NCBI GenBank assembly: GCA_029786595.1
Contig: JAFLXO010000005.1
Location: 4,652 to 59,980 of the forward strand
Length of the DNA stretch: 55,329 bases
Direction: 5' to 3'
DNA from: Nitrososphaerota archaeon
Lineage (GTDB): Archaea; Thermoproteota; Nitrososphaeria; Conexivisphaerales; UBA164
Shown here: positions 5,928 to 52,763 of the stretch, piece by piece
Position numbering within the stretch: position 1 is the first letter of the stretch
Layout of the letters: each line of letters starts with the position of its first letter
Notes under the pieces: model-generated
Databases searched by the model: none
Told to the model about the DNA's origin: nothing
What the model saw: the letters and a program-made list of their open reading frames with translations, nothing else
Position numbers and translations under genes: made by a program

Positions 5928-8054
5928 TCAGTACGATGATGGGAACGATATCAGCCTGTTAGCGTGTTGTAGAAAGCGCCTCCGATCAACCGGTATGAGC
6001 ATAGCGGCGGCAAGGCGCTTCCCTTCTATTTTATCCGGATCGAACCCTGAAACTTTGGCTTGAGAATAGGCTAGCCTCCTGCGGACGGCCTCGCAAGCGT
6101 CATATATCCTGCCTGCCGAAAGGAGCTGTGTAATTTCGTACCTACCTTTGATTTGCACACCTCCGGGGAGTTCGCTTGGCATAAATGCAGTTTTGATGAG
6201 CACGTAGGTGGGTAATACAGGCCGTTGTTGCATTGGGGTGAGCCACCTGCCCTGAATTTCCCGTATTCTGTGCCTGTCCCATTTTAGGCTGATTAGCCCA
6301 AGTAAAAGATCTTCAAGCAGTTCATCATCGGTTTCTGCTAGCATAAATGACATTACATCCTGTGGATCAACTACTAAATCACCTTCAAGACTGGCGGGTT
6401 TTCCTTCGCCCGTCTTATCCATAAATATCCGTTTCTGCAGGACGTTCAGAAGGCGGTCGGACAAGCTGTTTCCATACCACGCAATTGAACTGCTACTGTC
6501 AATCCACTTATTTTCATCGACTGGCAAGATGTTTGCTGAAATGGGAGCCCTTGGCGACAGTGAGGCTAGTGATGCGGCCAGTCTGAGTTCAACGGAGTCC
6601 TCTAACTGTTGAAGCCACTCCAGCCATTTTAAACTCAGAAAACGAGGGGGCTTGCTTGGTACATCCCTTCCTTTTATCCTGTAGGGACCATTTTCAAAGC
6701 GACGCACAAGCGACCCTAGGCCGGTTACGACATTCACCATGCCTTGATCCTGTTCGAACGCACGATGGACAGAAGCGTTTAGATTAGCCACTTCATTCTG
6801 TATGGAGGCAGGCGCAGATCCCACCCTCAGGTTTCTGTTAAGTTCATTTAAAAATGGAAGCACTTCCTTAATGGTATCAGCCATGCTCCTGTGCCTGACA
6901 TCTACCGTTCCAAGTGGTACCGCCAGCCGCGCGTCCCCTCTTCTGACGTAGAGGCCATATTTCGAGAACCTGTTTACCCCTACGTCCACTCCAAGAGAGG
7001 AAATCGCATATGAGAATTCCAAGGAGGTTCTCGCGTCCCTCAGACCAAAACCAGGTTGCCTTATACTTGTTCGGCCCTCCTTAAAGAAGGATCTGATTTC
7101 ATCGTATGTGGCATGTTCTACCCATATAGGTGCCCATATTTCATTTCCCTTCGCGGCGTCCTCTGCGACCGTTTCTCCACCCGTAGGAACTGATTCCACC
7201 GTAAATGGAAAGGCCGAAAGCGCCTTTCCACTCCTCTTCGTTAAACCCCCTGAGAGCATGATCAAGCCTTCAAACATCAATATTATATCCCATGGATTAA
7301 CCGGGGTGACGTCCTTGGCTTCCTGGTCAGGCATGCTAAGCTGGTTGATTCCACCTACTCTTTCTGGGTCATAAAAGCCTGATTTTAATTTCGACCCAGC
7401 TGCTGTATTTGGCGCTAACCCGTATAGAGCATGTCTTAGTAACTCCCCTTGCTCAGTTGAAGTAAACCCCTCAAACGTTGATTCCAAGGCCCTTATGAAG
7501 ACCAACGAAAGCTCTAGCCGTCCGTCGTTCCCGCCGCTTCCAAGCAGCGGGGCATATTGTATTTTGTTACCTATTACGCAGACTGCGTCGATCCATTCCA
7601 CAGCTGATTCTGAAAGATTGTTGCGGCACCACCTGATTGTAATATCTTTATTGCCGCCTTCCTTTTTTGTTTTCCCTTTGTTTTTACCCTCTTTTTCATC
7701 TTTGGCTTTCTTTATTTCCTTGTCCGATATAGCCCGGAATATCCTTTCAATGTCATCCCGATATATATCAAATCTCTTATCACGATTTACCATTATCCAA
7801 TTTATTTCTTTGTCCAGTTTGAAGAAGCCACTCCCGTTGTTCCATGGCGATAGGATGGATGTTGGGCTGTATTCTTTTAGTAGAAAGGCTTCAATATCAG
7901 AGCTGCTGAAGGTCGTCTCTATCCTGAAGGCGTCATCAATCCACCACCCCGTGACGTTCGGGTCCTTTTGCTCGGCCACCAGCCTGAATACCCCCAAGGC
8001 TTTAAGATAGGAAGCTAATGGCTCGGTCCTGCAACCTTTCAGGTCGATTATCAA
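5928..8054 (-). CDS. csx17: Type I-G large subunit Cas8g (Csx17)
   Basis: L.GCR.EPLASYLKALGVFRLVAEQKDP, SPWNNGSGF, LLGSGGNDGRLE, NPWD.ILMFEG, FPFTV and EIWAPIW motifs. Confidence 0.95.
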   Translation of the reverse strand: MIIDLKGCRTEPLASYLKALGVFRLVAEQKDPNVTGWWIDDAFRIETTFSSSDIEAFLLKEYSPTSILSPWNNGSGFFKLDKEINWIMVNRDKRFDIYRDDIERIFRAISDKEIKKAKDEKEGKNKGKTKKEGGNKDITIRWCRNNLSESAVEWIDAVCVIGNKIQYAPLLGSGGNDGRLELSLVFIRALESTFEGFTSTEQGELLRHALYGLAPNTAAGSKLKSGFYDPERVGGINQLSMPDQEAKDVTPVNPWDIILMFEGLIMLSGGLTKRSGKALSAFPFTVESVPTGGETVAEDAAKGNEIWAPIWVEHATYDEIRSFFKEGRTSIRQPGFGLRDARTSLEFSYAISSLGVDVGVNRFSKYGLYVRRGDARLAVPLGTVDVRHRSMADTIKEVLPFLNELNRNLRVGSAPASIQNEVANLNASVHRAFEQDQGMVNVVTGLGSLVRRFENGPYRIKGRDVPSKPPRFLSLKWLEWLQQLEDSVELRLAASLASLSPRAPISANILPVDENKWIDSSSSIAWYGNSLSDRLLNVLQKRIFMDKTGEGKPASLEGDLVVDPQDVMSFMLAETDDELLEDLLLGLISLKWDRHRIREIQGRWLTPMQQRPVLPTYVLIKTAFMPSELPGGVQIKGRYEITQLLSAGRIYDACEAVRRRLAYSQAKVSGFDPDKIEGKRLAAAMLIPVDRRRFLQHANRLISFPSSY

Positions 8055-10429
8055 TTTAGCCCCCCGCTCGCCCTGCCATCAGCGGCTCTTAGCAAGGCTT
8101 CATAGAATGCAAGCCTAAATGGACCGTATCTTTTAAGCAGTGTGCCGGTTCTTGAACGCCAGCTGCTCTGGCCGAACCCCATAATCGAGAGGTTTAATAT
8201 TGTTCCTGGCATGGAAAACCCGTTAACGGTCAAGCTTGGCACATAATCCCCATCCCAGACACCTAGTGCGAATTTTTCGTTTTTTTCGGGCACCAATTCG
8301 CCTGGCACGGATCTTACCGTCAGTCTCACTTTTCCATGGTGGGCGGCTGCTAAATATGCCACCAGATCATTTGAAAGGCCGTTCTCAAGAATTAGCAGTG
8401 CCGAGACAAGTTCGTGTCTGAAATACTTTCTTTTATCAGGATATGTTTCATTTTGGTTATGCCATTTATCCTTTGGAGCCTTGGCGTATAATTTATCCGG
8501 CGATGGCTTATCCTTCATTTTTGCCTGGAAAGCAGGATGCGCCTTGCCTGCATCGTGCCACATAGCAGCCGCTATAAGGTCTTCTTTTGATGTTTTGACA
8601 CCGACTTCTTCACATAGCTCTCTGGTCTTCTGTGCTACTTCCAACAAATGTTCAGAAATGAGCTTCCATCCTCCCGCCGAGGAAGGATCGCTTGGGTATC
8701 CCCCTAGCGTACTTTCACCAACAGAAAGATCCTCGACTGGTGGCTTGGATGAAGGGTCCCACCCAGTGAGCGTGCTGTAACCCCCCTCTGTAGCGTCCAG
8801 CATAACCACCATGCCCGGGTACCAGGCTACAGGCTTCCTCCATTCCCCTTCTAACGGGTCAAAGTCAAGGGCATTGTGCTTCTCTGACCACTGCCTGACT
8901 TCATCAACAGGAGCTGGACAGAGCTCTTCCCGGCTAGGTTGCACAACGGGCTTCCTTTGTCCCTTCCAGAAATCCTTTGGCTGGCGCCGCCAAAAGACAT
9001 ATGCTAGGTAATCGTTCCCGCTGCGTATGAACCTTGATACATCGGTATTCCTTCCCATGAGGTCCGGCGTGGTATCAAAGAGTTCAATTATATCCTTACG
9101 CCTTATGACATCTCTATGTTTGAACTCTAGCTCAAGCTTGCTCATCTGTATTGGCGACACTTCTGTAAACCCCTTAAGGCGCTCTTCTGCCTCCCTGATT
9201 GCGCTTTCACTATATGGCGCATATGAATTCCTTTGCCCGCCTGGAAGGCGGATCAGGTAGACCGTTGACCTGCTATCGTTGCCCTCCCTGTTACATCTGC
9301 CCATCCTTTGGATAATTGAGGCCAGCGGAGCGAGCTCGGTAAACATTGTTACCGCTGAAATATCCATACCTGCCTCGATCACCTGCGTGCTTACAACTAT
9401 TAGATTGCTGGTCTTATCCAGCAGACGCTTGAGCTTTAGCTGTCTATCCGCAGGCCTGAAGTGTGAATGTAACAGCATTACAGCAGGGCCATCGCGTTTC
9501 CTCAATATACCATCTAGGGCTCTGTAGAGGCCGAGGCTCCTACTAACGGTGTTCAAGACCACTAAGGTCTTTGTACCCATTATATGCCTACTGATTATCT
9601 CTTCGGCGAGCTTGTCATAGTCCTTGGTTGTGCTTTGAGCATATGCCAGCTTTTTAGGAGCAAACATACGCTTTTGTAGCTCGGTAGACATCGGGTCCGA
9701 AAGGTCCGAAGTATCCAACTCAAGCGTTTCTATACCTTCACCATTAAAGTCTCTAGTTGTGAGCCATTTTTTTCGGAGGGTGGCGCTCATCCAAATACTT
9801 TCGGTTTGAGCTTCAGTGCCTATCTGCCTCCTGAAGGCCTCCAATTGGATGGATGTAGCTAATCCGCTATCCATCAATTGGACTTCATCAAACACCCACC
9901 TACAGTCATTATTAAGTAACCCGAATTGCATTGGCCACCTGAACCTGCTCATGGCGTAGCCACGGTTAAGAGCGCGGGAAAGAAGCATATCCTGCGTGCC
10001 TATTATTACAATGTCATCTTCTGGATAGATATCCCAATCGTTCGCCTCTTCACCACCCATAAGAGTGACTATTGACACCTTTTTCTTGCCGTGGTCAATT
10101 AAATCGGTGGCCTTGGTTAGGTTACTTAGCCATTGTTGTATGTTATCTCTAGTCTGTTCAACCAATGTGCGCAACGGTAGGCAGTAAACCAGTCTTCTGG
10201 GTGTTGAATTTCTCACCCCTCCGTCATCGGTATACCTGCGTTGCCACAACCATGAAAGGAAAATGGCTGCAGTTTTACCCCCACCCGTAGGTATACTTAT
10301 CAAATCATACTTCCTTTTGGATAACATTACCTGATATTTGAACGGGTTTTTGCCCTCAGTAGCCTGATAGAAAAAATTCCTGAAATTTTTATCGGCTACA
10401 TCCTCACTCATTGTGTATCTGCATTCCAT
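8051..10429 (-). CDS. cas3: Type I-G Cas3 helicase with C-terminal HD nuclease
   Basis: PTGGGKT, DEVQ, MSAT, STQVIEAGMD, QRMGRCNR, then an HD domain (EHL, WHDAGKAH, RHE, HHG, AD.RAS) at the C-terminus as in type I-G. Confidence 0.97.
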   Translation of the reverse strand: MECRYTMSEDVADKNFRNFFYQATEGKNPFKYQVMLSKRKYDLISIPTGGGKTAAIFLSWLWQRRYTDDGGVRNSTPRRLVYCLPLRTLVEQTRDNIQQWLSNLTKATDLIDHGKKKVSIVTLMGGEEANDWDIYPEDDIVIIGTQDMLLSRALNRGYAMSRFRWPMQFGLLNNDCRWVFDEVQLMDSGLATSIQLEAFRRQIGTEAQTESIWMSATLRKKWLTTRDFNGEGIETLELDTSDLSDPMSTELQKRMFAPKKLAYAQSTTKDYDKLAEEIISRHIMGTKTLVVLNTVSRSLGLYRALDGILRKRDGPAVMLLHSHFRPADRQLKLKRLLDKTSNLIVVSTQVIEAGMDISAVTMFTELAPLASIIQRMGRCNREGNDSRSTVYLIRLPGGQRNSYAPYSESAIREAEERLKGFTEVSPIQMSKLELEFKHRDVIRRKDIIELFDTTPDLMGRNTDVSRFIRSGNDYLAYVFWRRQPKDFWKGQRKPVVQPSREELCPAPVDEVRQWSEKHNALDFDPLEGEWRKPVAWYPGMVVMLDATEGGYSTLTGWDPSSKPPVEDLSVGESTLGGYPSDPSSAGGWKLISEHLLEVAQKTRELCEEVGVKTSKEDLIAAAMWHDAGKAHPAFQAKMKDKPSPDKLYAKAPKDKWHNQNETYPDKRKYFRHELVSALLILENGLSNDLVAYLAAAHHGKVRLTVRSVPGELVPEKNEKFALGVWDGDYVPSLTVNGFSMPGTILNLSIMGFGQSSWRSRTGTLLKRYGPFRLAFYEALLRAADGRASGGLN

Positions 10430-17245: not shown

Positions 17246-17389
17246 GGAGCTGTTATTTGTCCATTAAATATAAGCGCTGGATTTACTGATGTTTAGGAAA
17301 CCAGTGGGCGGACCCCCGTCATGGGGGTTTTCTGAGCATTAAAATACGCACGATTATCAGGCTAAAATTTTTTACGATATAACCGGCGC

Positions 17390-40023: not shown

Positions 40024-40596
40024 ATGAGGAGGAAGGGCGTTAGCCGAATCACGACTGCATTTGCGGTGGCGATAATAATCATAATCATCGCTGTAGCCGG
40101 ATTTATTATATTTAGTGCTGGTGGGCTTGGCAACATTGGAATCGGAACTGGTGGAAACGGCGGCGGAGCCAATTCAAACGTGCCAGCGCAAATAGTTATT
40201 ACTTCAACTAATCCCACACTGGAACAAAGCATTGCGCCTGCTGGAGTCGATCTTCTTTATTATAAGCCGCTTGTATTACAACCGAACACGAATTATACGT
40301 TCCCAATAACGATTACTGTAGAAAACAGCGCAGGCGAAGTATTGAACACGTCCATTGTAATTACACCAGTGAATTGTACCTTCATTTATCCAAAAGATAA
40401 TATTTTATACTACGTATCTCCGTCTTCGGGCGTTTCTCCGTTTAATGCAACTTTGGTAATTGTTACGGGAAGCACAGTAAATTTTGGGCAAACAACTGAT
40501 GGTGATATTAGCTTGAGCTTTACACTATCCACTGCTATGGTAAAGAATCCAAATATATATAATATTCTTATTGCAAATTCAAGTTACAAATCATGA
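40024..40596 (+). CDS. Archaeal type IV pilin-like protein
   Basis: Class III signal peptide-like MRRKG/VSRI followed by a hydrophobic helix and a T/N-rich beta domain. Confidence 0.75.
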   Translation: MRRKGVSRITTAFAVAIIIIIIAVAGFIIFSAGGLGNIGIGTGGNGGGANSNVPAQIVITSTNPTLEQSIAPAGVDLLYYKPLVLQPNTNYTFPITITVENSAGEVLNTSIVITPVNCTFIYPKDNILYYVSPSSGVSPFNATLVIVTGSTVNFGQTTDGDISLSFTLSTAMVKNPNIYNILIANSSYKS

Positions 40597-40617
40597 TCAT
40601 AGTAATTAAATTACTCG

Positions 40618-42687
40618 TTAAGTATTAGGGCTTGTAGCACCCATATACCCACCGTTTGTATTAAAAACCGCATTAGCATAAGATATACCTGTATTGCCGA
40701 TTGGATTGTTCACAGTATATGAATAATACCCATTACTAGCGGTTACAGTGTAGCCGGTCGCTAAATGCCCGCCGCCGCCATTATCGAAATATACAGTTAT
40801 TGTTTGCCCGCCCAGCCCTGCGCCATTATCGGATGTAGTTAGATATCCGTAAATCGTGTATGTACCAACGCCGGTGGTGAAGCCGGCACTCAATCCAGTT
40901 GGCGTGTAGTATGCCGCCGTAACGCTGGCCGTACCACCGGAACCAACTGATACAGAAGAAGGCGCACTGTATACACTCAAACCGTATTGTGAGTTACTAT
41001 AGGAAATCGAATATGTGCCCGGCGGCACCCAAGCTACGGCATCACTCCCACCACTATATACTAACTGTTTCCCGTTAGAAAGCGTAGCGGTAGAAATTGC
41101 GGTCGCCCCAGTGCCATAATCCTGCGATGAGTAGAATATTTCACCATCTTCACCAAAGTTCGCGCCGATCGAAGTTGGTGAGTATATGTTGAACTGGTAT
41201 GGATTGCCGCCCGAAACACCAGTCCACGATGAAAAATACCAATTTGTAGATGGGTACGCCGTCACCGTCACCAGCGTGCTCTCATTATACCAGCCACCGC
41301 CAGATACAGAACCAGAGCCAGAGTTCACATACGCATTCACGTAAAGCTGTGTGGTGTATGAAGCCGTGATGGTGGTGGAACCGTAGATGGTTTGCGAACC
41401 GCTCGAAGGATTCGGATTCACATACTGCACTCCGGAGCCGCCGCTGAAAGAGCTCCCGAAAGTATAGGTTATCGTGCTTCCGTAGTTGACCGTAACGCTG
41501 TAAGGCGTGGTTCCAGAACCGTAGTTCGTGGATACAGGTGCACCGCTGACCGGATTTGACTGGAACGTGACTGAATAGGAGTTAATGCCAAAGTTCGCGT
41601 ATATAGAGTTGGGCCCGTTCATGGTGACAGAATAGGTTGAACCAGTATTGCCGTTAGACCAATCGATGAAGTGCCATCCGCCTGCTGGAGATTCTGAGGC
41701 TGTTGCAGTGGAGCCAGCGTTGTACCAGCCGGAGCCGGATACGGAGCCTGAGCCGCTGGCTATGCCCACGGTAAAGTAGTACTGGAGCTGGTATGCTGCG
41801 GTTATGGATCCGCTGCCGGTTACTGTGAACGAGCCTGATTGCGAAGATGATAATCCGGTTGTGCTTTCCCATACATATTGCGCTCCTGAGCCGCCGGAGA
41901 CAGGGGATATCCATGAGAATGAGTGGGTTGTACCCTCCTGCCAGGTGAAGCTGATTGGCAATTGTGAATATGTGTACGGGTTGCCATCCACTGTTAGCAC
42001 TGTGCCGCTTGCGCTTGAACTCATTCCTGTTTGTGCGAATGTTACTGTTGCGTATATTGGGTTGAATGTGGCGGCTTCTGTTATGTTAGACCACATGTAC
42101 ACGGAGAACGTCTGATCCGAACCGCTGTAGCTGTACTGCCCCGTCCCTGTCCAGCCGCCCCACGAATAATACTGCGCCGGGGCGGCGGTCAGCGTGACCT
42201 TATCGCCGTAGGTGTAATAATATGTGCCTGGCGCTGGGGTGGTGGACCCGCCAGGGGTAGAAGTGATGGTGAGAGCGTATATATCAACGGTCGGGTTGTT
42301 TATGTCGAAGGGGACGTACCATTCGTTTCCGTAGGACGTCAAAATCGCATACCGGTACGGCGTCTGCAACGTAAAGTTGTAGCTGGAGCCCGGGTACAGC
42401 GTTATGGATTCGTTGATAAACGTGGGCGGGCTGCCGGTGTTCGGGTTCCATACCATTATCTGCGTTATCCTGGCCGTGTACTGCCCGCCGTTCGTGACCT
42501 CAAGGGTGGAGCCGCTGATGGCCATGGACAGGTACTCGGCGTCCTTGTAATGTAACAGGTTCGTAACTTGCTGCTCCTGATACAGGCTGCTGAAGATGCC
42601 CACGGCGAAGAACGAAATGGCCAGCACACACGCTACGGCGATCAACAGCACAAGCAGGCCGGCGAGCATGGAGGAGACAGCCTTCAT
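40618..42687 (-). CDS. Large pilin-like adhesin with repeated InlB-B/Flg_new-like beta modules
   Basis: MKA/VSS class III-like signal; repeated GSGSVSG.GWYN....T.TA.P...W.F..W modules; S/G/T/Y-rich. Confidence 0.85.
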   Translation of the reverse strand: MKAVSSMLAGLLVLLIAVACVLAISFFAVGIFSSLYQEQQVTNLLHYKDAEYLSMAISGSTLEVTNGGQYTARITQIMVWNPNTGSPPTFINESITLYPGSSYNFTLQTPYRYAILTSYGNEWYVPFDINNPTVDIYALTITSTPGGSTTPAPGTYYYTYGDKVTLTAAPAQYYSWGGWTGTGQYSYSGSDQTFSVYMWSNITEAATFNPIYATVTFAQTGMSSSASGTVLTVDGNPYTYSQLPISFTWQEGTTHSFSWISPVSGGSGAQYVWESTTGLSSSQSGSFTVTGSGSITAAYQLQYYFTVGIASGSGSVSGSGWYNAGSTATASESPAGGWHFIDWSNGNTGSTYSVTMNGPNSIYANFGINSYSVTFQSNPVSGAPVSTNYGSGTTPYSVTVNYGSTITYTFGSSFSGGSGVQYVNPNPSSGSQTIYGSTTITASYTTQLYVNAYVNSGSGSVSGGGWYNESTLVTVTAYPSTNWYFSSWTGVSGGNPYQFNIYSPTSIGANFGEDGEIFYSSQDYGTGATAISTATLSNGKQLVYSGGSDAVAWVPPGTYSISYSNSQYGLSVYSAPSSVSVGSGGTASVTAAYYTPTGLSAGFTTGVGTYTIYGYLTTSDNGAGLGGQTITVYFDNGGGGHLATGYTVTASNGYYSYTVNNPIGNTGISYANAVFNTNGGYMGATSPNT

Positions 42688-42716
42688 AACACAGCATGCT
42701 GGGATGGCTTAAAAGG
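42685..42716 (-). promoter_or_regulatory. Shared element promoter, copy 1 (adhesin)
   Basis: Minus strand CCTTTTAAGC-CATCCCA-GCATG-CTGTGTT-ATG. Confidence 0.75.
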
Positions 42717-42735
42717 CGCGGATGGTGATCGGAAA

Positions 42736-43018
42736 GATGTTTTACATAACCGCTCAACGCCGCTCCTCAGCAGGCAAAGGGTTGGGCTGTGCCCACACCG
42801 CCGGCCATTATTTTTTTACAAACCATGCACAGGGTGGACAGGACCGGGCGGAGCCCTCGTCAAGAAGGAATACATGGACTATCATCTAAAGCAACACTAG
42901 GGCCAGCCTGCGTTTTCCTACCGGATACCTACTTCACATATGGGTTTGAACTTCATGCCCAATATCCTTAAGTGCAATTATTAAAATAACGCCATGTTAA
43001 TTTTATTAAGCGAGCGTC
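42736..43018 (+). repeat. Internally deleted copy of the replicase locus
   Basis: 42736-42847 matches about 48299-48410; 42848-43018 matches 51162-51333 including GALVKKEYM..HLKQH*. Confidence 0.9.
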
Positions 43019-43387
43019 GTAGAATAAAGCCCACAGCCCTTTTTTGCCAACATCATTTAATAAATTTTAGAGGCTTGCCAAGATAAAATTGTTACTTTTA
43101 ATAAGCTGCATTGGTCATTTCAAATGCTTATAATGCTTATTTTTAGCGTTAAAACATCGAACTTTTGAATAATTAAACAAAACACGCTTTATTTCAAATA
43201 ACGTTATTTGAATTCGAGTTCACATAAGTTGATTGACGAACTGCAACTACGCAGATGATGGACATTAAAAACATCCTTTTATAAAAGGATCCTTAACAGG
43301 CAAAGCACGCCCACCGTTAACCTCCGTTTGTTTAAAACCGATATCGCTAATAACGTTTTTAAGCACCCTTAATTTAATTAGCTAGCT

Positions 43388-43951
43388 ATGAGTTATGAAC
43401 CGTACGTGCTTTATTACGGGAGCAATTTTTTTAACAGGGCGAAAAAGGTTTATTCAATAGGCATGCTGGACAAGCCGTTTGGAAAGATCCTTAAAAAATA
43501 CGGAGAAAACTCAACGTTTTTGAATAGAGAGCAGGCTTCTCAGCTGCTCGATTCGTTTTCAAGACAAAGCTCGATAACTGTTTCTAACGCGCAGATCATG
43601 AAAAATCTGTTGGAGGTTCTTTTCCTTCCTACTTCTCTATTGTACAGTTATTTTAAGAAGCTTTCTTTTGCGGAAGCACACGAATTAGATGATCTTATTG
43701 TAATGGAGTTCATGGGGTCCCAGACAAAGCCTTTCAAGCTTACTCCGCTTTTAATTTACATGTGGTTCTTAATCCCAAAATCCGAAGAGGGATACACGCA
43801 TTCTATCAATTTGATGAAGAGAATAAAGGACGATGTAGGGGTCCCCCCAATCGATAAGGAGGAATGGGACGATCTAAAACCATTGATCGAAAAATTCTCC
43901 AGAGCGCTGCCTGTTCGCGGGTCAGCGGAAAACCTGTGGGAAAAGCTTTAA
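43388..43951 (+). CDS. Hypothetical cytoplasmic protein
   Basis: 187-aa ORF with TTTTTAAG about 25 bp upstream; no recognised motif. Confidence 0.75.
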   Translation: MSYEPYVLYYGSNFFNRAKKVYSIGMLDKPFGKILKKYGENSTFLNREQASQLLDSFSRQSSITVSNAQIMKNLLEVLFLPTSLLYSYFKKLSFAEAHELDDLIVMEFMGSQTKPFKLTPLLIYMWFLIPKSEEGYTHSINLMKRIKDDVGVPPIDKEEWDDLKPLIEKFSRALPVRGSAENLWEKL

Positions 43952-44579
43952 GATCGATTCCTTGTTTTAAATCGTTAAACGTATAAGGCCGCTTATCGTA
44001 CGGCCTGTTTAATCTGAAAGCATAGCAGGATTTTGTCCTCCAGCCTTGAGCTGACCATGGATCTTAAATTACCTTGGATTACCCTTCTTTTTCGTTTTTT
44101 AAAACGCCCGATCAAAGGCGCATTAAGGGTACAGTCAGCGTACTTGGCGGCGTAGCCTACCAATGCAAGCATTTTGACGTCCTCCCCTTGTAAGCCTTGG
44201 CGGCCATGTACCTTCCGTAAAGCCATATCATTAAAAAAAGCAGGAAGGGCTCTAGGAACGGCATAAAAAACAGTATTATATCTAAAATTGTACCCGCTAT
44301 GCCAGGGGATATGGCCTGCAGCTAATGGAATTTAATTTCTTTATCTTTCTGCCCCTCATTTTTGAACGATGTTATGCCCGTAAGCCGGATTAGGATGTAT
44401 ACGAAATACACATTATGTTGCCTTTCCATACATGTTAATTTTATTTTATTTATTAATAATGAACATCACTGCGGCGCAGGATAACTAGCTAAAAGATCAG
44501 AACGGTATCTAAAAAATTACCTGTTTCATTAAGCTTTTTGAAAGCGTCTGCGTATAAGACCGTTTGAAATTTCTTAAAT

Positions 44580-45320
44580 TCAAACGGTAACTTTCTGCTG
44601 CAGATTGGAGGTCTGCCCGTCGAGATAAATCGCATAGTAGCTAACATATACGCTCTGGCCAGAACTAAGTGACGTGACGTTTGACAGTGTCCCAGTGTAG
44701 CTCTGCCCAGGTTTAAGGTCTGTCAAATCTATCTGATAGGTTTGTCCGCCAGAGATCAAATGCGCCTGCGCGTACATTATTTCATCAGTGCCATTGTTAT
44801 AAAAGGTAACAGCCCAGGTTGCCAAAGAGCTGCCGGATGTCAAGCTTATTTTATCGCTTTTAACAAGAAATGAATCATTAACGGGACCCAGCTCAGTCAG
44901 GGTTATAGATTTATTGAAGCTTTGATAGGCACCGTTTGTAAAGTATATTTTTATATTGGACGTATACTGTTGACCGTAGTAAACAGTTATAGAAGGTCCA
45001 GTTGTATACGCTGCTATCATACCAGCGCTGACCGGGCCAACATATATCATTGTTTGAAGAAGGGCTGTGCCGTTATAGAGTTCCGAAGTAATGTTTTCAA
45101 TGCTAATTGTACCTGTATTTTTTACAGTTATTGTCTGTGCAGCATTAGACGTAGTAGCCGCTAAAGTATCGTTTAAAATTTCTGCCGAATATGAAACCGC
45201 TGGTTGGCCGTTTGAGCCTTTATTATTCAAGCTTCCTGATCTGTATGTATTTTCAACGAATGCTGCCGCTATTAAAACCAGCACAACCACTATTATAATA
45301 GTTAATGTCTTAACTTTCAT
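44580..45320 (-). CDS. Membrane-anchored surface protein with two pilin/Ig-like domains
   Basis: N-terminal TM helix; duplicated TVKNTGT / TFYNNGT modules; many sequons. Confidence 0.8.
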   Translation of the reverse strand: MKVKTLTIIIVVVLVLIAAAFVENTYRSGSLNNKGSNGQPAVSYSAEILNDTLAATTSNAAQTITVKNTGTISIENITSELYNGTALLQTMIYVGPVSAGMIAAYTTGPSITVYYGQQYTSNIKIYFTNGAYQSFNKSITLTELGPVNDSFLVKSDKISLTSGSSLATWAVTFYNNGTDEIMYAQAHLISGGQTYQIDLTDLKPGQSYTGTLSNVTSLSSGQSVYVSYYAIYLDGQTSNLQQKVTV

Positions 45321-45517
45321 ACGACCAATTTTATTTTGGGATATTTAAAAATTTTTTGCCCCTTTGGGCCTTGGAAAACGGTTGCAGATTATCAGCCCAG
45401 CGCGGGCCTGGGTTAGAACGGCGCAGATCAGCCCCATCCAATATACGCATATCCGGGGCACAGCGTTCAAAGGACACGGTCTATCGATCGATCAAGCAAA
45501 CAAATGATGTACGGAAA

Positions 45518-45637
45518 TTTACCGCTAAATTGAAGGTGTAAAAATCAGAGGAGGGGGTTATGTAAAACATTATCAGGATGTTTTACATGACCCGCTGAAC
45601 GCCGCTCCTCAGCAGGCAAAGGGTTAGGCGGTGCCCA
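45518..45637 (+). repeat. 120-bp direct repeat (left copy) containing a 16-7-16 palindrome
   Basis: Four mismatches versus 48240-48359 by manual alignment; GGGTTATGTAAAACAT-TATCAGG-ATGTTTTACATGACCC at 45555-45593. Confidence 0.95.
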
Positions 45638-46243
45638 GAGGATGCTCCAAAAAACGCTTAGGTAGGTAAAAACGTTTGCAAATCGTTGAGCTGCGCCAAA
45701 TATCAAGAGTTTCAATGCTATCAATGGTTTTCCATTTTCCATTGCTCTAACTTTTTTGCCCTATTTAACCCCCTACTCCTATTTCCCTTTGCCTCGGGGA
45801 GCAAGATGTAATTTTAATGAAAGGATGAGGTAATTATACGGAGCTTGAATGGGGATGGAAAGTCAGAAGAAGGGAGTATGGAAAAGCGTTGATATCCTTG
45901 ATACCTTGATGTTTGGGCTGCGCCCGCCTTCTGGCACAGTACCATATACCGTGTATTCTTCTTATTATTGATCGTCCTATTGATATTATGCGCCGAGTAT
46001 GCCCTATATTTTTCAGGGCGGCGGTGCGCGAGCTTGGGACATATGCCCTGTAGCTATCACGCCGCTGGTGATAGAAGACCTTTACCGTCAGACCTGAAAT
46101 ATGTCTGAGGCCTTCAATAGTGAAGGTGTGTACGGGCCTTAGGTAATGGCTGCTCCAGAACATGCGTTAAATTTTTTTACAAACCTCAAACCAACTCGCC
46201 AGTTAATGAAGCATTTATATAAGAATGGATATATATAGGAATT

Positions 46244-46963
46244 ATGTGCTTAGGTAACGGTCAAGAAGCACTTCATCAGAATGTATCTGACGGGGAATTT
46301 TTTAATAAAATTGATGTAACAAAGGGGGAACTTGAAAGGAAGTTGGAAAAGTACAAGGCAGAGGAGGTTTATGCTTACATAGTACAATCTGTTGAATATG
46401 ACGGGTCAAAATTTTTACAGGCTGCCACAGGGCCGAACTTTGAAGGAGGGATAATAACTCTGTGTACATGTAAGCATAGGATGCGAGCCAGCAGTAGAAA
46501 GGTGAAAGAAGGATGGAAGTCAACCTGGATAGCGGGCTTTACGGGCCAACGCTTATTCAGGGATGGGCGGAATTATCTGTTCTATCTGATGCGCGTGGGG
46601 GAAGCGTTTCCGTCACAGAAAGCCCTTTGGGACAGCCTGGATACACATACACGGGAAGTGAAGAACGCTCTACATAACCCACTGGGCGACCTGTATCAAC
46701 CCAAGCCGTCCCCTGAATTTAAGAGTGAATATGAATGGGGCAGTTACTATGAACCCTGCAAGGACCATGATCACCGTAAGGATGGTATATGGAAAGGCGA
46801 TATAGATTATAAAGGTTTACACCCTTCCCTATTGCTCGGGGAAAAGGATAACAGCTACCTGTGGTTTGATAAGAGTAGGGCCCCAAGCTACAAAGGCGAC
46901 GGAAAGCAGTTCCGGCAGAAGAAATTCAATAGCTTGGAGGCATTCCTCAGGGAGCTCAGATAA
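46244..46963 (+). CDS. Nmad2-like protein (nucleotide modification associated domain 2)
   Basis: YAYIV...GPNFEGG.ITLCTCKH.MR...WIAGF...LFYLMRV...N..GD.Y...H..D pattern; TTTATATA upstream. Confidence 0.75.
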   Translation: MCLGNGQEALHQNVSDGEFFNKIDVTKGELERKLEKYKAEEVYAYIVQSVEYDGSKFLQAATGPNFEGGIITLCTCKHRMRASSRKVKEGWKSTWIAGFTGQRLFRDGRNYLFYLMRVGEAFPSQKALWDSLDTHTREVKNALHNPLGDLYQPKPSPEFKSEYEWGSYYEPCKDHDHRKDGIWKGDIDYKGLHPSLLLGEKDNSYLWFDKSRAPSYKGDGKQFRQKKFNSLEAFLRELR

Positions 46964-46977
46964 TCTGTGTCACGGAC

Positions 46978-47643
46978 ATGTCATGCATACTGATCAATGT
47001 CGGGTCCGGAGGGTCTAATCCGAACGGCAGGGGGAGAATATTTGATGACGGAACCTATGAATACCTGCCACTTCCGGAGCAGGAAAGGACCAGTGAGAAA
47101 ATTCCCACTTACAGGGACATCGGGTTCGAAAAGGTAAAATTCCCTGATATTGCAGTTCACCTTGACCCTGAATTCGAGACCTATACATATGGTCATGTCA
47201 TAAGGGGGTTCGGGGACGTAAGGCTCTTCGTGGGTCTCAAAGCCGGCGGCATGCTCGTCTTTTACTCGACCCTTCAGAATGGCCACCATTGGGCACCATA
47301 CATAATAGGGTACTTCTTCGTTGACCGGGCCATAGATTGCAGGAATTTTCAGGCCTCGGATATCTTCGCTCTCAGATCCGAGGGCTTTCAGAATAACGCC
47401 CATCTGAAGAGGATTGACCCTCAGGTTGATTTTCTGGTCAAAGGCGATGATAACTCCAGATTGCTGAAGAAGGCCTTTCGGATGACAGAAACAACGGAGC
47501 CGCTCGCCCTGCGAAAATCATTGAGAAACCTTCTATTCACGCCTAGCGGGCGGGCAATTGGCGACAGAAAACCATGGTACAGGTGGACGCTGATCTGTAA
47601 AAACCCTTCAGAACTCCTACAGGTCATTGCAGAAGACAGTTAA
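46978..47643 (+). CDS. Nmad3-like protein (nucleotide modification associated domain 3)
   Basis: INVG, GRIF.DGTYEYLPLPE, PTY.D, VHLDPEF...TYG, LVFYSTL, IIGYF.V and NNAH.KR motifs. Confidence 0.82.
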   Translation: MSCILINVGSGGSNPNGRGRIFDDGTYEYLPLPEQERTSEKIPTYRDIGFEKVKFPDIAVHLDPEFETYTYGHVIRGFGDVRLFVGLKAGGMLVFYSTLQNGHHWAPYIIGYFFVDRAIDCRNFQASDIFALRSEGFQNNAHLKRIDPQVDFLVKGDDNSRLLKKAFRMTETTEPLALRKSLRNLLFTPSGRAIGDRKPWYRWTLICKNPSELLQVIAEDS

Positions 47644-48239
47644 TATTAGCTTTCCGATTTCATTAACGCATCATTGATGTTTACATCCATGATCGAACAT
47701 AAAGGTTCTAGGTACTTCTGGACATCCAAGGGCGAAGATTGAACATTACCAGTACTCCGAACTAGAATGACCATCTAATCATGCCATAGAAATCGATTCT
47801 TTATTATATAGGGAATGCAGCCATATTGAACCTCATCCACATAAATACAATAATAATAAATCTGGAATATTTGAAAGACAGAAAGCCCTATTTCTTAAGT
47901 TTATAAACTGAGTTGGTTACGAATTAGACTTTGCTTTTGAGAATACCCAGAGGGCACCGTGGGCAGTGCTGCCGACGTAGCTGCTAATTTTTATTTTCTG
48001 CGTTTGGGGGAGCTATAATAAGCTTCATATATATATTGAGCGAGGAACTCAAGCTACTTGGAGTCAGGAAATTTCCTATGACTTCAAAAAGCATATGTAA
48101 TAAAATAGACACATATAAATCATTACTTTACCTTTTTGCAGTTGAATCAAAATTTGGGTCTTTGTTATCTGTGATGATCGCCATGTTCGATGCATAGGAA
48201 GGCAATATCGGAGGAGAGTAATATGGTTTTATGGTGAGG

Positions 48240-48410
48240 TTTACCGCTAAATTGAAGGTGTAAAAATCAGAGGATAGGGTTATGTAAAACATTATCAGGA
48301 TGTTTTACATGACTCGCTCAACGCCGCTCCTCAGCAGGCAAAGGGTTAGGCGGTGCCCACACCGCCAGACATTATTTTTTTGAAAACCATGGACAGGGCG
48401 GACAAGACGG
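48240..48410 (+). repeat. 120-bp direct repeat (right copy, 48240-48359) plus an extension shared with 42736-42847
   Basis: Manual alignment with the 45518 and 42736 copies; palindrome at 48277-48315. Confidence 0.95.
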
Positions 48411-48494
48411 CGCCCAGTATTAATGCTATCAATGTCCTTCCAAATATTTTTCTAAAAACCCCTGACATGGTTGGTTTTCTGGGTAGGGATCAAG

Positions 48495-48701
48495 CGTGTC
48501 AACCCTGTCAACCCTGTCATGGGGTTGGTATACTGTTACCCCCTAACCTTTACTCACCCTATATAAGCTCCCTTTTTTTCTCTTGGTTTGTGTTTAAAAA
48601 CCGCTGTTTTTACATGTGGAATAAGGGGTTTAAATAGGGCAGTGGAAATTTAAGGGGCTACAATATGGCACCCCCCTGACAGCCCTGACAGGGGTGACAC
48701 G
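48495..48701. other. Putative replication origin: inverted triplets of 9-bp-spaced TGTCA iterons flanking an AT-rich core
   Basis: CGTGTCAACCCTGTCAACCCTGTCATGGGG (48495-48524) is an imperfect inverted repeat of CCCCCTGACAGCCCTGACAGGGGTGACACG (48672-48701); immediately upstream of the replicase. Confidence 0.7.
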
Positions 48702-48733
48702 GTCATCCGAACCCCAAGGGCGACCCTGTCATG

Positions 48734-48766
48734 CCTTTTAAGCAAATTTTTGCATGCGTGCGCATG
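48734..48766 (+). promoter_or_regulatory. Shared element promoter, copy 2 (replicase)
   Basis: CCTTTTAAGC-AAATTTTT-GCATG-CGTGCGC-ATG; implies a true start at 48764. Confidence 0.75.
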
Positions 48767-51214
48767 TCGGCCAAGATCGATTTTGACATGGGCCTCAACG
48801 TCATCCCGCTCGAACAGGGGAAAAAGACCCCCGCCGTGGATTGGAAGAATTTTCAAACGCGCCATCTCTCTCAGGAGGAGTTTAATGAGTGGTTCGGGCA
48901 GGACCCGAACCGTAACCATGCGGTGATAGGCGGCGTCACATCCCACAACCTCGTGGTGCTCGATTTTGAGGCGTGGAATGATTTTGTGGCCTTCTTCCCG
49001 GAGTGGGAGAGGCTGGCGAAGACCACCCGCGTCGTGAAGACGCCCCATGGCGGCGCCCATGTATATTATTATACACAGGAGGAGGTCCAGCGCAGGATCA
49101 AGGTGTTTGGCGACAAACATCAGGTTGACGTGTGCGGGTGGGGCGGCTATGTATGCGGGATCGGCACGGTCATCGACCATGCGCTGTGCGACAAAAAGAA
49201 GTGCCACATAGATTCCGGCAAGAGCACGTACGAAGCCGTCGGGACCATGGACATTTCGGTAGTCGGAAAGGGGCTCCTCGCATCTTTCCTTGATCGAGGC
49301 CGGAGGCTGGGCTGGCAGGTTGAGGTGCTGAAGGACACCAGGCCCGAGAGGGACACCTTTGATCACCTGCTCACCGTGGATGGCCGGCTGAACGGCCTCT
49401 TCAACGGCGACATTGAAGGATATGCGTCCCGCTCTGAGGCTGAATTTGCGCTCGTCATAAGGCTGATCAGCTACGGCTTCAGCGATGAGCAGATCAACCG
49501 AATAATGAAAGATTCAAGGATAGGCAAGTGGAACGAGTCCGAACAGTATGCCGAATACACGCTGCGGAAGGCGCACGAATGGATCGTGCGCGATCGCTCC
49601 GTGACTGCGGACGAATCGCCGTCCCTCCTAGGCCTCGGCAACCCCTCGGACGCGGCCGACCACGTCCTCGAGCGCTTTCATATCATCACCACGGACGACG
49701 GCCTGTACGTATACGACGAAGGGCTGGGGATGTACAGGCAGGGGATGGAGAAGGCGATCCAGGCGTGGGCCGAGCAGCAGGCCCGTGTTTCAGGCGGCAA
49801 TATATCACTTCGTTACATTGCTGAAATGTTTGGCCACATACAGCGCAGGACCTATGAGCGCGATATAGCGGACAACACGGATGTGTTCCACCTGAAAAAC
49901 GGCATACTGAACATGAAGACCGGTGAATTTATCGACCACACGCCCGATAAGGCGTATTTCTCCGCAATCCAGCTTCCGGTGAAGTACGACCCGAAGGCGA
50001 AGTGCCCGCTGATATTGAAGTTCATTTCTGAAATCGTCTACCCCGAAGACATCGCCGTCATTCAGGAGTTCACAGGCTACATGTTCTACCGTGGATATCC
50101 GGTGGCAGCTGCGCTGCTGCTCGTGGGCGGCGGCAGCAACGGCAAGTCCACACTGATCAGCCTGATCAAGGCCCTTCTGGGGCCATCGAACATCGCCACG
50201 TGCAGCCTTCAGGAGCTGGAGTACAACCACTTCGCCAAGGCCGACCTCGTGGGCAAGCTTGCTAACCTCTTTGCTGACCTGTCCGACGTGGCGCTGAAGT
50301 CCACGGGGGTGTTCAAGATGCTCACCGGCGGCGACCCGATCACCGCTGAGCGAAAGTACGGCCAGCGGTCCCCGTTCGTGAACTATGCAAAGCTCGTTTT
50401 CAGCGCGAACAAGGTTCCGATGGCATACGACGACAGCGATGCGTTCTTCCGGCGTTTCATCATCGTCAAGTTCCCGATGACGTTCAACAAAAGGACCGCC
50501 GACGCCCGGCTGCTTGAGAAGCTCACGACCGAGGAGGAGCTGTCCGGCCTCCTGAACTGGGGGCTTGAAGGCCTGCGGCGCCTCATGGACAACGGGTTCG
50601 TGTTCTCGAATTCCAAGAGCGTAGAGGAGATAAAGGACGAATACATCAGGATGTCAAACCCTGTGGAGGCGTTTTTCATGGACATGGTGGAGGAGGACCC
50701 GGAGAAGCGCATCGCCAAGGCTGACCTCTATCAGGCGTATGTAAGCTACTGCAAGGCGAGGAAGCTGGCGCCCGTAACTATGCCCACCTTCTTCCTGAAC
50801 GTGAAGAAGAACGGCCGCAACTACAGCGAGACGAGGTTAACATCCGAAGAGAACGGAAGGAAGGTGCGGTACAGCGCCTTTCTGGGGATCGCGCTGAAGT
50901 CCAGCGGTTCAGGTGAGCGGCCTTTAGATGCTACTCCCGTAGTACAACCGGCAAAGGATACGGAACCCGAAGCGGCTAAACCGGAGGCTAGGTCAGAGGC
51001 TAGGTCAGAGGCCAAGCCAGAGGCCAAGTTGGAGGCCAAGCCGGCAGACGAGAGGGCCGCGGAGGCGCCCGATACAGCGCCAGCGAAAACTGATAGCGCC
51101 CCGGGCTTTGATGTGGTCAACGACGTTGCCGCAGGCGTGCAGATATACCGGTGCAGGGAGTGCGGGGCCCTTGTCAAGAAGGAATACATGTCCGACCACC
51201 TGAAGCAGCACTAG
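48764..51214 (+). CDS. Plasmid/virus replicase: AEP primase-polymerase, helical domain, D5/P4-family SF3 helicase and C-terminal C2H2 finger
   Basis: VVLDFE, KTPHGGAHVYY, GGYV (prim-pol); SRSEAEFAL; LKNGILN; GSNGKST Walker A; KLVFSANK, AFFRRF; CRECG...HLKQH. Confidence 0.93.
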   Translation: MSAKIDFDMGLNVIPLEQGKKTPAVDWKNFQTRHLSQEEFNEWFGQDPNRNHAVIGGVTSHNLVVLDFEAWNDFVAFFPEWERLAKTTRVVKTPHGGAHVYYYTQEEVQRRIKVFGDKHQVDVCGWGGYVCGIGTVIDHALCDKKKCHIDSGKSTYEAVGTMDISVVGKGLLASFLDRGRRLGWQVEVLKDTRPERDTFDHLLTVDGRLNGLFNGDIEGYASRSEAEFALVIRLISYGFSDEQINRIMKDSRIGKWNESEQYAEYTLRKAHEWIVRDRSVTADESPSLLGLGNPSDAADHVLERFHIITTDDGLYVYDEGLGMYRQGMEKAIQAWAEQQARVSGGNISLRYIAEMFGHIQRRTYERDIADNTDVFHLKNGILNMKTGEFIDHTPDKAYFSAIQLPVKYDPKAKCPLILKFISEIVYPEDIAVIQEFTGYMFYRGYPVAAALLLVGGGSNGKSTLISLIKALLGPSNIATCSLQELEYNHFAKADLVGKLANLFADLSDVALKSTGVFKMLTGGDPITAERKYGQRSPFVNYAKLVFSANKVPMAYDDSDAFFRRFIIVKFPMTFNKRTADARLLEKLTTEEELSGLLNWGLEGLRRLMDNGFVFSNSKSVEEIKDEYIRMSNPVEAFFMDMVEEDPEKRIAKADLYQAYVSYCKARKLAPVTMPTFFLNVKKNGRNYSETRLTSEENGRKVRYSAFLGIALKSSGSGERPLDATPVVQPAKDTEPEAAKPEARSEARSEAKPEAKLEAKPADERAAEAPDTAPAKTDSAPGFDVVNDVAAGVQIYRCRECGALVKKEYMSDHLKQH
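50981..51040 (+). repeat. Five imperfect 12-bp tandem repeats encoding a (P/S/L)EA(R/K) linker
   Basis: ccggaggctagg tcagaggctagg tcagaggccaag ccagaggccaag ttggaggccaag. Confidence 0.85.
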
Positions 51215-51395
51215 GGACGGCCTGGATTTTCCCACTGGATATATACTTCACATAAGGGTTTGAACTCCATGCCCAATATCCTTATGTGCAATTATTGGCA
51301 TAATGTCATGTTAACTTGATTGAGCGAAGCGTCCAATTTGTCTTGAAATGGATTTCAGGTAAAAATATATAAATTTAATTATGTATTAGGCATCA

Positions 51396-52763
51396 ATGAA
51401 TCTGAAAATAGTAGCCGCTGTATTGATAGTTCTAACAGTAATAGGCTTCTCTGCATTCGCGTATGACCAGTTCTATGTCATACCTTCTCAACAGACGCAG
51501 TTGAACAACGCTGAGGCCAGTATATCTGCCATGGCACAGAGCCTGAGTTCCATGACCGCTGAATTCCAGTCTATAAATTCAAGCCTTTTGAACCTCAGCA
51601 ATGGCCTTTCTGGCGAGCAGTCCGTTATAACCCTACTCAATTCAAGCATAACTTCAGAGAATTCTCAGCTGATAAGCCTGGAGCAGAATCTGATGGAAAC
51701 ACCAAGGATAGGTATAGTCAACCCAGTTTCATTTGAGCAGGCGCCAATCCTGGCAGCGATGAGCGTCCAGGCTTCTGTTAAAATAGATGGATACACGTTC
51801 TGGCTTGGCACTATAGGAAATCACCAGGTAGTAGAGGTAAGGAGCGGAGAGAAGGAATTTGCTTCAGAGCTGGCTACGGTCCTCATGGATACGCATTTCA
51901 ACATTGTCGCAAACATAATGTCCGGAATAGCAGGCTCAAGGAATCCAAATCTCAAAACTGGCGACGTGCTGATAGGCGCGTTCGTGGTAAACCCTGACGC
52001 CATTAAATACTCCTATGACGGAACGCAGATACCCTATACCACCGAAATGGTTACAACGCCAAACTCACTGATAAACGGCACAATAATAACTGGCTACGGA
52101 CAGACCGGCGCTACCCCAAGCGATGCCTCCACATACGGTTATGGCCCGGGAGATAATAATTCGTCATTTCCCTATATCGCAGACTTTGTGGCATCTGCAG
52201 GCCTAGTGCAGATCGCAGAAGGGGCCTCTGGAATACTGGGCTCCACCAGCAATTCATACATAACCGGTAATCCCAATGCAACCGGCACGTCGCCTGCCAA
52301 TGAAATGATCGGCGTTATAAGTTCGTCATCTCACTGGACCAATCCGGTGTCCATCAACGGTGTGCAGAATGCGCTTTACCAGACCGATGCTGGGGAAAAT
52401 GAGGGATTTGGGTTCGCATATGCCAATACGCAACTGGGCATTCCATGGGTCGTGGTCAGGGGCATATCCAACTCTCACTTTGTGCTTAACGTCTTCAAAG
52501 GCACGCTGGCTGCGGACAGGGCTGCGAATGTGACAGTTTACATCATAGATCACTTTAATATGAACGGCATGCTGTATCAGCCTGCAACATTTTCGATGCT
52601 ATCGGGCAATTCCAACGCAGCGATGCACGGGTACATAGTCGCTGATTCAGCAACCTATAATATGACCAATATAACAGTAACTCAGGTGCAGTACACCGCT
52701 CAGAACGGGTCGATCATAACCATAACGAACCCCAATATGTTAGAATATACAGGTCCCAACTGA
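51396..52763 (+). CDS. Membrane-anchored extracellular MTA/SAH nucleosidase-like (PNP_UDP_1) protein on a coiled-coil stalk
   Basis: N-terminal TM, heptad S/L/N stalk, RIGIV...EQ, SGIAGS.NP.L..GDV.I, ENEG.GFA, IPWVVVRGISN. Confidence 0.85.
   Translation: MNLKIVAAVLIVLTVIGFSAFAYDQFYVIPSQQTQLNNAEASISAMAQSLSSMTAEFQSINSSLLNLSNGLSGEQSVITLLNSSITSENSQLISLEQNLMETPRIGIVNPVSFEQAPILAAMSVQASVKIDGYTFWLGTIGNHQVVEVRSGEKEFASELATVLMDTHFNIVANIMSGIAGSRNPNLKTGDVLIGAFVVNPDAIKYSYDGTQIPYTTEMVTTPNSLINGTIITGYGQTGATPSDASTYGYGPGDNNSSFPYIADFVASAGLVQIAEGASGILGSTSNSYITGNPNATGTSPANEMIGVISSSSHWTNPVSINGVQNALYQTDAGENEGFGFAYANTQLGIPWVVVRGISNSHFVLNVFKGTLAADRAANVTVYIIDHFNMNGMLYQPATFSMLSGNSNAAMHGYIVADSATYNMTNITVTQVQYTAQNGSIITITNPNMLEYTGPN

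Follow-up and report, generated by a model that had tools for sequence, protein, structure and literature searches.

A stretch of 55,329 nt from a Nitrososphaerota archaeon (the window; positions 4652-59980 of contig C66, JAFLXO010000005.1, in the metagenome-assembled genome (MAG) GCA_029786595.1, here G000) carries three direct copies of a 15-nt core sequence, O (ATGTTTTACATRACY), at which otherwise unrelated flanks are swapped on both sides. We propose, with a confidence that is evenly balanced, that O is the lambda-like attachment (att) common core of a family of integrative primase replicons, members of which would have been stacked at this locus by repeated integration and would then have decayed.

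The core is one arm of a palindrome

Repeats B (45518-45637) and C (48240-48359) are identical at 116 of 120 positions (97%; blastn E 7.6e-50) and enclose 2602 bp (45638-48239), in agreement with a first-pass annotation of this DNA, made from the sequence alone, which had described two 120-bp copies with four differences around about 2.6 kb. Both hold the exact palindrome ATGTAAAACAT-7 nt-ATGTTTTACAT, which occurs twice in the window against 0.00 occurrences expected from 100 shuffles of the window. As that annotation had also stated, the inner arms are perfect over 11 nt and the 7-nt spacer, TATCAGG, is asymmetric; outer bases lengthen the arms to 16 nt, imperfectly (GGGTT.../...GACCC in B, ...GACTC in C). 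Core O corresponds to the right arm. The third copy, A, had been placed almost at the right arm and starts precisely at its first base (42737), with neither left arm nor spacer. It reaches further right than B and, like C, continues through an extension (to about 48413 in C) that is missing from B. The three cores, at 42737, 45578 and 48300, all lie on the plus strand, in the direct orientation of att-type repeats.

Flanks are exchanged at the core

A search of this and related genomes for the palindrome, a check suggested in the first-pass annotation, returned five further copies in the MAG and two in the congeneric genome G010, with swapped flanks. Aligned on the right arm, the ten copies (eight in the MAG, two in G010) fall into the classes X-O-P' (A and C20:17342, with a degenerate member at C20:3922 in which 8 nt are deleted inside O), P-O-P' (B and C), P-O-Y (C66:2467 on the reverse strand, C20:21398, G010:C65 and G010:C55) and Z-halfO-P' (C40:270). 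Five flanks, X, P and Z on the left and P' and Y on the right, are joined at O, which is the sole sequence common to the classes. Flank X is the 49 nt upstream of a gene for a 689-aa pilin/adhesin-like protein. Flank P comprises the left arm, the spacer and L-seg, the last being a promoter together with the first 50-130 nt of a gene for an NADH:flavin oxidoreductase of about 650 aa, which is intact on C20 and on G010:C55. P' is made up of the R segment, which is conserved and includes an invariant 24-mer, and then a T-run; Y is an open reading frame (ORF) for a Zn-ribbon protein of 55-76 aa, which starts 22 nt after the first right-arm base in all four P-O-Y copies.

Similarity among the X copies stops, leftward, at the first arm base, and similarity among the Y copies stops, rightward, after base 15-16. 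The 7 nt preceding the arm in X (CGGAAAG) are unlike the spacer, and the X copies have neither the left arm nor the spacer, so that exchange does not take place in the 7-bp spacer as it does in dif or loxP; the comparison with dif and loxP in the first-pass annotation is not supported on this point, the right arm being the shared segment. The exchange points would instead bracket the right arm or fall inside it, a breakpoint pattern that is the one expected for a common core, not for a spacer crossover. The alignments support the view that the repeats behave as a putative recombination node.

The oxidoreductase relic beside P shortens stepwise among the copies, from full to internally deleted, 130 nt, about 50 nt (B) and none (C), as erosion from the element interior towards a retained terminus would give. 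The L-seg of B is 80-82% identical to C66:2452-2628 and C20:21249-21412, which adjoin a full or partial oxidoreductase gene. Full palindromes number four in the MAG (B, C, C66:2467 and C20:21398), a count that co-binned strains could inflate, and two in G010; in two P-O-Y copies the gap between the arms is one base longer.

The P-O-Y unit at C66:2266-3815 is inverted with respect to a conserved neighbour, an HFX_2341_N-like gene, when compared with G010:C65 (L013 9719-10313). Inversion mediated by the palindrome's two inverted cores would give this arrangement, as could an assembly or rearrangement difference.

In family-level DNA searches of 17 genomes, the repeat was confined to the genus of the window. 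A degenerate palindrome pattern matched no stretch in the collections metagenome_contigs and viral_contigs and two in genome_contigs (L053 and L054), which are not independent of the two contigs from G010. For the 24-mer that is invariant in the R segment, genome_contigs gave no match. The palindrome is absent outside the genus in the collections scanned, so the family is new.

The units resemble decayed primase replicons

The segments A-B, B-C and C-onward are three head-to-tail units with the shared order O, R segment, origin-like block, (primase), cargo and P arm (Table 1). Units 1 and 2 each end with a P arm, and the right end of unit 3 falls beyond the contig. Unit 3 has an intact primase-helicase gene, unit 1 retains a 3' stump of it and unit 2 has none. 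The intact gene matches the P4-family primase TIGR01613 (1.5e-57) and a PHROG DNA primase (4.5e-98), and its true start is probably the second Met, near 48764. The P' arm of unit 1 is 90% identical to 48299-48408, and the stump that follows holds the last ~60 nt of the primase gene with the DNA downstream of it (peptide tail ...VKKEYM.DHLKQH); the deletion junction recurs at C20:17455-17625. A further primase copy on C20 carries two in-frame TAA codons. With the primase protein as a probe, the 15 pattern hits in metagenome_contigs yielded no confirmed homologue, and viral_contigs gave nothing.

The origin-like block of unit 3 has arms at 48502-48522 and 48683-48703 that are 86% complementary, and the same architecture, with other iteron letters, lies upstream of the homologue in genome G013 (L069 2318-2503). 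The block of unit 2 is 80% identical to C29:718-935 and aligns with the origin block of the G013 primase (a primase 70% identical); after it comes the Nmad pair and no primase. The blocks of unit 3, unit 2 and G013 share inverted iteron arms and an AT-rich centre with two TATA-like boxes and differ in their iteron letters, which suggests replicon variants of differing initiator specificity. In the AT-rich centre of the unit 3 origin (48598-48631), a short palindrome includes an O-like word, TGTTTTTACATG, with one T more than the core. On C29 (L051 500-960), a block of the unit 2 type lies about 130 nt from a tRNA gene, perhaps as the remnant of a related element that had inserted at this tRNA.

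Every unit holds replication genes or sequences of its own, of the kind that mark a mobile element: an intact primase and iterons in unit 3, a primase stump in unit 1 and iterons only in unit 2. The first-pass annotation had proposed cassette capture or tandem accretion; the head-to-tail stacking of the units fits tandem accretion, whereas the supposed cassettes are not bare cargo but decayed copies of the primase replicon, each with an origin-like block.

The cargo differs between units. The G+C content of units 1 and 2 is 0.37-0.49, lower than the 0.57-0.60 of the primase and lower than in the neighbouring genes, and that of the unit 1 cargo is 0.37-0.43. The Nmad2-Nmad3 pair that had been placed between B and C is confirmed for Nmad3 (PF18754, 2e-18, 67.4 bits against a cut-off of 27; phrog_34025, 5e-13), and the Nmad2-like gene reaches 21.5 bits, under its cut-off of 26.1. 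The ORFs of the units gave no PADLOC match as defence genes and no informative NCBIfam match.

ARAGORN and Rfam returned no tRNA gene and no match, respectively, in the window. A small RNA in the R segment was considered and rejected, with compensatory changes at none of 13 predicted pairs over five copies and folding z-scores of -1.5 and -0.5; a search of the MAG for a complementary target of the R-segment 24-mer gave none beyond one 10-mer.

Related contigs and natural populations show alternative states

On contig C20 (22 kb; C66 has 60 kb), the X-O-P' copy at 17342 and the P-O-Y copy at 21398 form direct repeats 4.07 kb apart, and the interval holds a primase stump, ORF116, MFS fragments and the oxidoreductase gene; it reads as a candidate attL-element-attR arrangement. 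Elsewhere on C20, the reverse strand shows the order pilin gene, X, O with the 8-nt internal deletion, P' and primase, with no units stacked between. Genome G013 has a separate decayed origin-primase stump upstream of its intact primase, lacking an O-like core, and this independent stump indicates that stacking and decay upstream of this primase family recur. In detail, L069 1500-2210 on G013:C147 contains the remains of an origin arm, 50 nt of primase sequence that match the intact gene at 88% identity and, next, a 121-aa orphan ORF between 28-nt inverted repeats that are 89% complementary.

Twenty public sequencing runs from seven studies hold the stretch, all of them mine tailings, mine drainage or sediment metagenomes and none of them RNA. 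Contigs of four runs from four studies (runs X2, X13, X14 and X15) map onto 40500-51500, and unit 1 is covered in all four, while unit 2 is covered unevenly. In run X15, depth is 0 over 45638-47105, compared with 140-400 in unit 1 and 76-388 in the primase, and a contig over 44425-45637 continues into the intact P' extension, that is, from B directly into a full P'. This bridging contig is the firmest population item, and the uncovered stretches in X13-X15 were considered solely together with it. Units 1 and 2 are equally deep in X2. In X13 and X14, unit 2 has about one quarter of the depth of unit 1 and lacks 460 nt, with an 8-nt microhomology at the borders of the deletion. Rightward of the Nmad part, contigs of X13 and X15 diverge from the window at 48108 and continue with about 2.8 kb of unlike sequence, which places the module in another context as well. 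These contigs suggest that unit 2, with Nmad2 and Nmad3, is polymorphic, being present or absent among populations.

In run X14, a left flank of a further kind begins about 7 nt beyond the left arm, and one joint leads from 45589 back to 42748 (a step back of 2842, side 71). A circle of unit 1 was considered as the source of this joint and rejected: a strain with B followed by an A-like P', lacking unit 2, explains it equally, and the depth of unit 1 is not doubled in X15. The first-pass annotation had recommended looking for an excised junction or a circle of about 2.7 kb; among the contigs no such circle was seen.

Possible mechanism and alternative explanations

Based on these arrangements, we propose a hypothetical scheme in which O is the att common core of a replicon family whose members combine an iteron block of the origin type with a PrimPol-S3H primase-helicase and variable cargo. 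The free form would be P-O-P', with L-seg, the left arm and the spacer on the P side and, on the P' side, the R segment and then the origin. Recombination at O into an already occupied site, if repeated, would stack units head to tail and leave X-O-P' at the outermost left junction (A), P-O-P' at the internal junctions (B and C) and P-O-Y at the right end; older units would then decay, unit 1 to a primase stump only and unit 2 to an origin block without its primase. The joints would be made by a site-specific recombinase which, because none is encoded nearby, would act in trans or would since have been lost; both the choice of enzyme and the direction of events are presumed in this scheme. Integrase loss after integration is reported for other archaea in a section of PMC8371274.

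Several points weigh against this proposal. The element integrase put forward in the first-pass annotation did not materialise, as neither C66 nor C20 encodes an integrase inside or beside the element, in a MAG that is 82.7% complete. An empty X-O-Y site for unit 1 or for the whole array was not found among the sequences compared, nor was a free P-O-P' circle in the contig evidence. The many copies may stem from few events, the minimum being one exact event at O and two junctions in or near the palindrome (C40 and the left flank in run X14). Our confidence stays near the midpoint because of these items: the missing integrase, the missing empty site and circle, and the possibly small number of ancestral events. 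In addition, the loss of unit 2 could be plain homologous recombination between the 120-bp repeats. In genome G011 and on contig C15, the left junction of the origin block falls at the T-run, about 75 nt from the expected O and with neither O nor R segment, so not every rearrangement takes place at O. The MAG has several look-alike contigs at 80-90% identity and 4.2% contamination, and some of the copies are maybe one locus in co-binned strains. Finally, the run evidence consists of contigs and not of reads, with a single depth figure per contig, and a gap in it proves nothing.

We consider it unlikely, though deserving of weight, that no dedicated recombinase is involved and that the locus is a hypervariable spot upstream of a resident primase, where homologous or microhomology-mediated recombination rearranges repeated promoter and origin modules through duplication, deletion and exchange; the clustering of junctions at O would then be merely apparent, with many copies descending from one or two ancient joints. 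Plain duplication would fit the 97% likeness of B and C on either side of O, and shuffling of this kind would fit the microhomology-bounded deletion in X13 and X14, the T-run junctions of G011 and C15, the G013 stump, which is without an O-like core, and the lack of an integrase near the locus. Against such shuffling, however, O is the only sequence that the otherwise unrelated flanks on both sides have in common, and 15 nt of identity is too short for efficient homologous recombination. Moreover, C combines a short P with a full P', whereas B combines a long P with another continuation, as a single circle crossover at or near O would give, and the internally deleted O on C20 coincides, in this single case, with the lack of stacked units.

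A primarily regulatory role of the palindrome appears improbable as the explanation of the locus; the palindrome would then be promoter and operator for two divergent genes, those of the Zn-ribbon protein (Y) and of the oxidoreductase, and a dimeric regulator, perhaps the Zn-ribbon protein itself, would bind to it. Such a role would be compatible with O as an att core, since recombination could be incidental or exploit the bound protein. The constant start of the Zn-ribbon ORF in the P-O-Y copies is in keeping with this role. It also fits that AAAAC-(C)TTTATCA, formed by the inner left arm and the spacer, precedes the ATG of this ORF by about 25-31 nt, where, by general knowledge of archaeal promoters, the B recognition element (BRE) and TATA box of a leaderless mRNA would be placed. 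The oxidoreductase start is likewise preceded, at a distance of about 25-40 nt, by a conserved TATA-like block in L-seg, and the Zn-ribbon protein has a weak match to the viral DNA-associated domain PF22415 (23.8 bits, under the cut-off of 27). However, regulation leaves unexplained why unrelated flanks meet at both arm edges and why units are stacked, and the regions upstream of four distant Zn-ribbon homologues hold no comparable palindrome: an inverted repeat with arms of at least 7 nt occurs upstream of one of the four and is unrelated and GC-rich. The Zn-ribbon protein was therefore rejected as a conserved operator partner, its distant homologues, found in 9 of 301 genomes of the class, having no comparable palindrome and unrelated neighbours.

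With similarly low probability, the junction module as a whole (L-seg promoter, palindrome, O and R segment) may be a trans-acting capture-and-expression platform, at which circular P-O-P' DNA is inserted beside a resident primase replicon. Insertion would be carried out by a recombinase encoded elsewhere, or by the Zn-ribbon protein with a host enzyme; two outward promoters would express captured genes such as Nmad2/Nmad3 or those for secreted adhesin-like proteins, and the inverted cores would also permit inversions, the flipped P-O-Y unit on C66 being a candidate.

Least probable is a dif-like site, with XerA, the resolvase of chromosome dimers in the host, mobilising the units, as an archaeal counterpart of Xer-dependent elements and pdif modules. 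The perfect 11-nt inner arms, the asymmetric 7-nt spacer, which is inside the 6-8-nt range of tyrosine recombinases, and units without a recombinase of their own fit such a site; yet the archaeal dif, as described in part of PMC8371274, is a single copy with 11-nt arms and a 6-nt spacer, whereas the spacer here has 7 nt, full palindromes recur in the MAG, and the X-O-P' copies, with no left arm and another 7 nt before the right arm, place the exchange outside the spacer. Nor does the suggested involvement of host XerA hold: none of the four full-length tyrosine recombinases of the incomplete MAG reaches the cut-off of NCBIfam NF040815 (best 103 bits against 220), and Thaumarchaea are reported to lack xerA in the portion of Cortez et al. 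2010 that concerns them (PMC2958812). In all, the Xer/dif version of the first-pass annotation fails four defining features and is not supported. Matches to PF00589 in the MAG number eight, on seven other contigs (C75, C41, C92, C49, C22 with two, C55 and C99), and PF16795 or SSV-type integrases have no match in the MAG.

Features of the window and genomic surroundings

The MAG has 1.6 Mb in 110 contigs. The features of the locus are listed in Table 1.

Table 1. Coordinates of the stacked units and adjoining features in the window
Feature	Position	Strand	Description
Pilin/adhesin-like gene	40618..42687	-	secreted, 689 aa; Pfam Flg_new_2 1.1e-15; weak N-terminal BasB-like match; upstream region is flank X
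Flank X	42688..42736		same flank-core junction at C20:17342; degenerate form at C20:3922
Core O, copy A	42737..42751	+	right arm alone
P' arm, unit 1	42752..42847	+	R segment with invariant 24-mer, hairpin-like stretch, T-run, first iteron
Primase 3' stump and downstream region, unit 1	42848..43039	+	42848-43018 83% identical to 51162-51333; rest of gene deleted
Cargo, unit 1	43388..45320		ORF187 (+, 43388-43951), doubtful ORF77 (-, 43993-44226), ORF246 (-, 44580-45320, secreted, CARDB-like)
P arm of B (L-seg)	45420..45554		promoter and ~50 nt of the 5' end of the lost NADH:flavin oxidoreductase gene
Palindrome B	45555..45593		left arm 45555-45570, spacer 45571-45577, right arm/core O 45578-45593
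R segment, unit 2	45594..45637	+	likeness to C stops at 45637
Origin-like block, unit 2	45690..45950		65-nt inverted arms, 71% complementary, 66 nt between; TTGATA-type iterons
Cargo, unit 2	46244..47643	+	Nmad2-like 46244-46963, Nmad3 46978-47643
Short P arm of C	48240..48276		sole remnant is the TATA-like block of the oxidoreductase promoter
Palindrome C	48277..48315		left arm 48277-48292, spacer 48293-48299, right arm/core O 48300-48315
R segment, hairpin-like stretch, T-run, unit 3	48316..48389	+
Origin-like block, unit 3	48390..48720		CCCTGTCA-type iterons, inverted arms around an AT-rich stretch with TATA-like boxes
Primase-helicase, intact	48731..51214	+	PrimPol, D5_N and DUF5906/S3H (Pfam)

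A secreted or membrane-anchored PNP/MTA-nucleosidase-like protein is encoded near the primase in both G000 (51396-52763) and G013 (L069 7047-8345). Parts of the locus, namely an M20 peptidase, a carbonic-anhydrase-like gene, the pilin-like gene, the primase, ORF108 and a T2SS-F-like gene, are repeated at 80-91% identity on the MAG contigs C20, C40, C15, C27, C35 and C89, which are either true paralogous regions or co-binned strains. Defence-type islands lie 3' of the paralogous ORF108/T2SS-F genes on C27 (L049 1600-12000) and C35 (L050 3100-10300) and contain Mrr, a PLD-helicase-methylase set, a ParB_N and PRTase-CE pair, a type IIG methylase and GmrSD-HNH.

The window opens with a CRISPR array (1-1030) of at least 22 repeats (~36 nt; spacers ~36-40 nt), which extends upstream past an N gap to C66:3966; the same two spacers are present to either side of this scaffold gap. 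On the minus strand there follow a Cas4-Cas1 fusion (1619-3364), a Cas_GSU0053 protein (4756-5859) and Cas3 (8051-10429), a set that looks like type I-U/I-G. None of 20 spacers of the array matched the rest of the MAG, bar one 20-nt match at E 0.009.

Relation to known systems

If O is an att core, it would offer a defined 15-bp site with natural recombinant junctions for uncultured acid-mine archaea that have no studied integration system, and the locus would illustrate the growth of a hypervariable island, next to genes for surface proteins and pili, through the stacking and decay of replicons; as no recombinase is encoded in cis, the practical question is which enzyme acts on O. If the joints are the product of ordinary recombination, the locus would be an unremarkable variable region. 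If the junction module is a capture platform, it would be the functional equivalent, in archaea and without an integrase, of integrons or pdif modules.

Xer/dif elements and the pdif modules of bacterial plasmids are recombinase-less segments between palindromic sites that are mobilised in trans. The locus resembles them in its recombinase-less DNA bracketed by palindromic sites of the tyrosine-recombinase type, and differs in that exchange falls outside a spacer of 7 instead of 6 nt, no XerA-grade enzyme was found, and the sites are directly oriented and linked to a replicon. In integrons, cargo accretes beside a fixed platform through the IntI integrase, folded sites of the attC type and cassettes of single promoterless ORFs. 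Accretion of cargo beside a fixed platform is common to both arrangements, and the promoters of the junction module could drive captured genes; unlike integrons, however, the locus has no adjoining IntI-type integrase and no attC-type sites, and its units of 2.7-2.8 kb carry several ORFs and origin-like DNA.

The locus also resembles lambda-type att sites, which have a 15-bp common core according to part of PMC8371274: the attP-, attL- and attR-like sites share only about 15 bp and their flanks swap on both sides, a likeness of sequence as distinct from cleavage points or enzyme. Here, in contrast to lambda, the P arm holds a second, inverted copy of the core 7 bp away.

Tandem integrated elements at a short att core, which the locus most probably represents, are a known kind of thing. 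Among the thaumarchaeal integrated elements described in part of Krupovic et al. 2019 (PMC6563490), the att sequences have a median length of 17 bp, the shortest being 8, with 15 of 68 intergenic, and there are tandem cases and PrimPol-S3H proteins. Compared with what is described there, the present locus has no integrase in cis and no tRNA target, two of its three units are decayed to about 2.7 kb, and its core is one arm of a perfect palindrome that is also promoter-like. It nevertheless resembles the tandem elements of that study in its intergenic target, its PrimPol-S3H, its short core in direct repeat (15 nt here) and the head-to-tail arrangement of units at one site.

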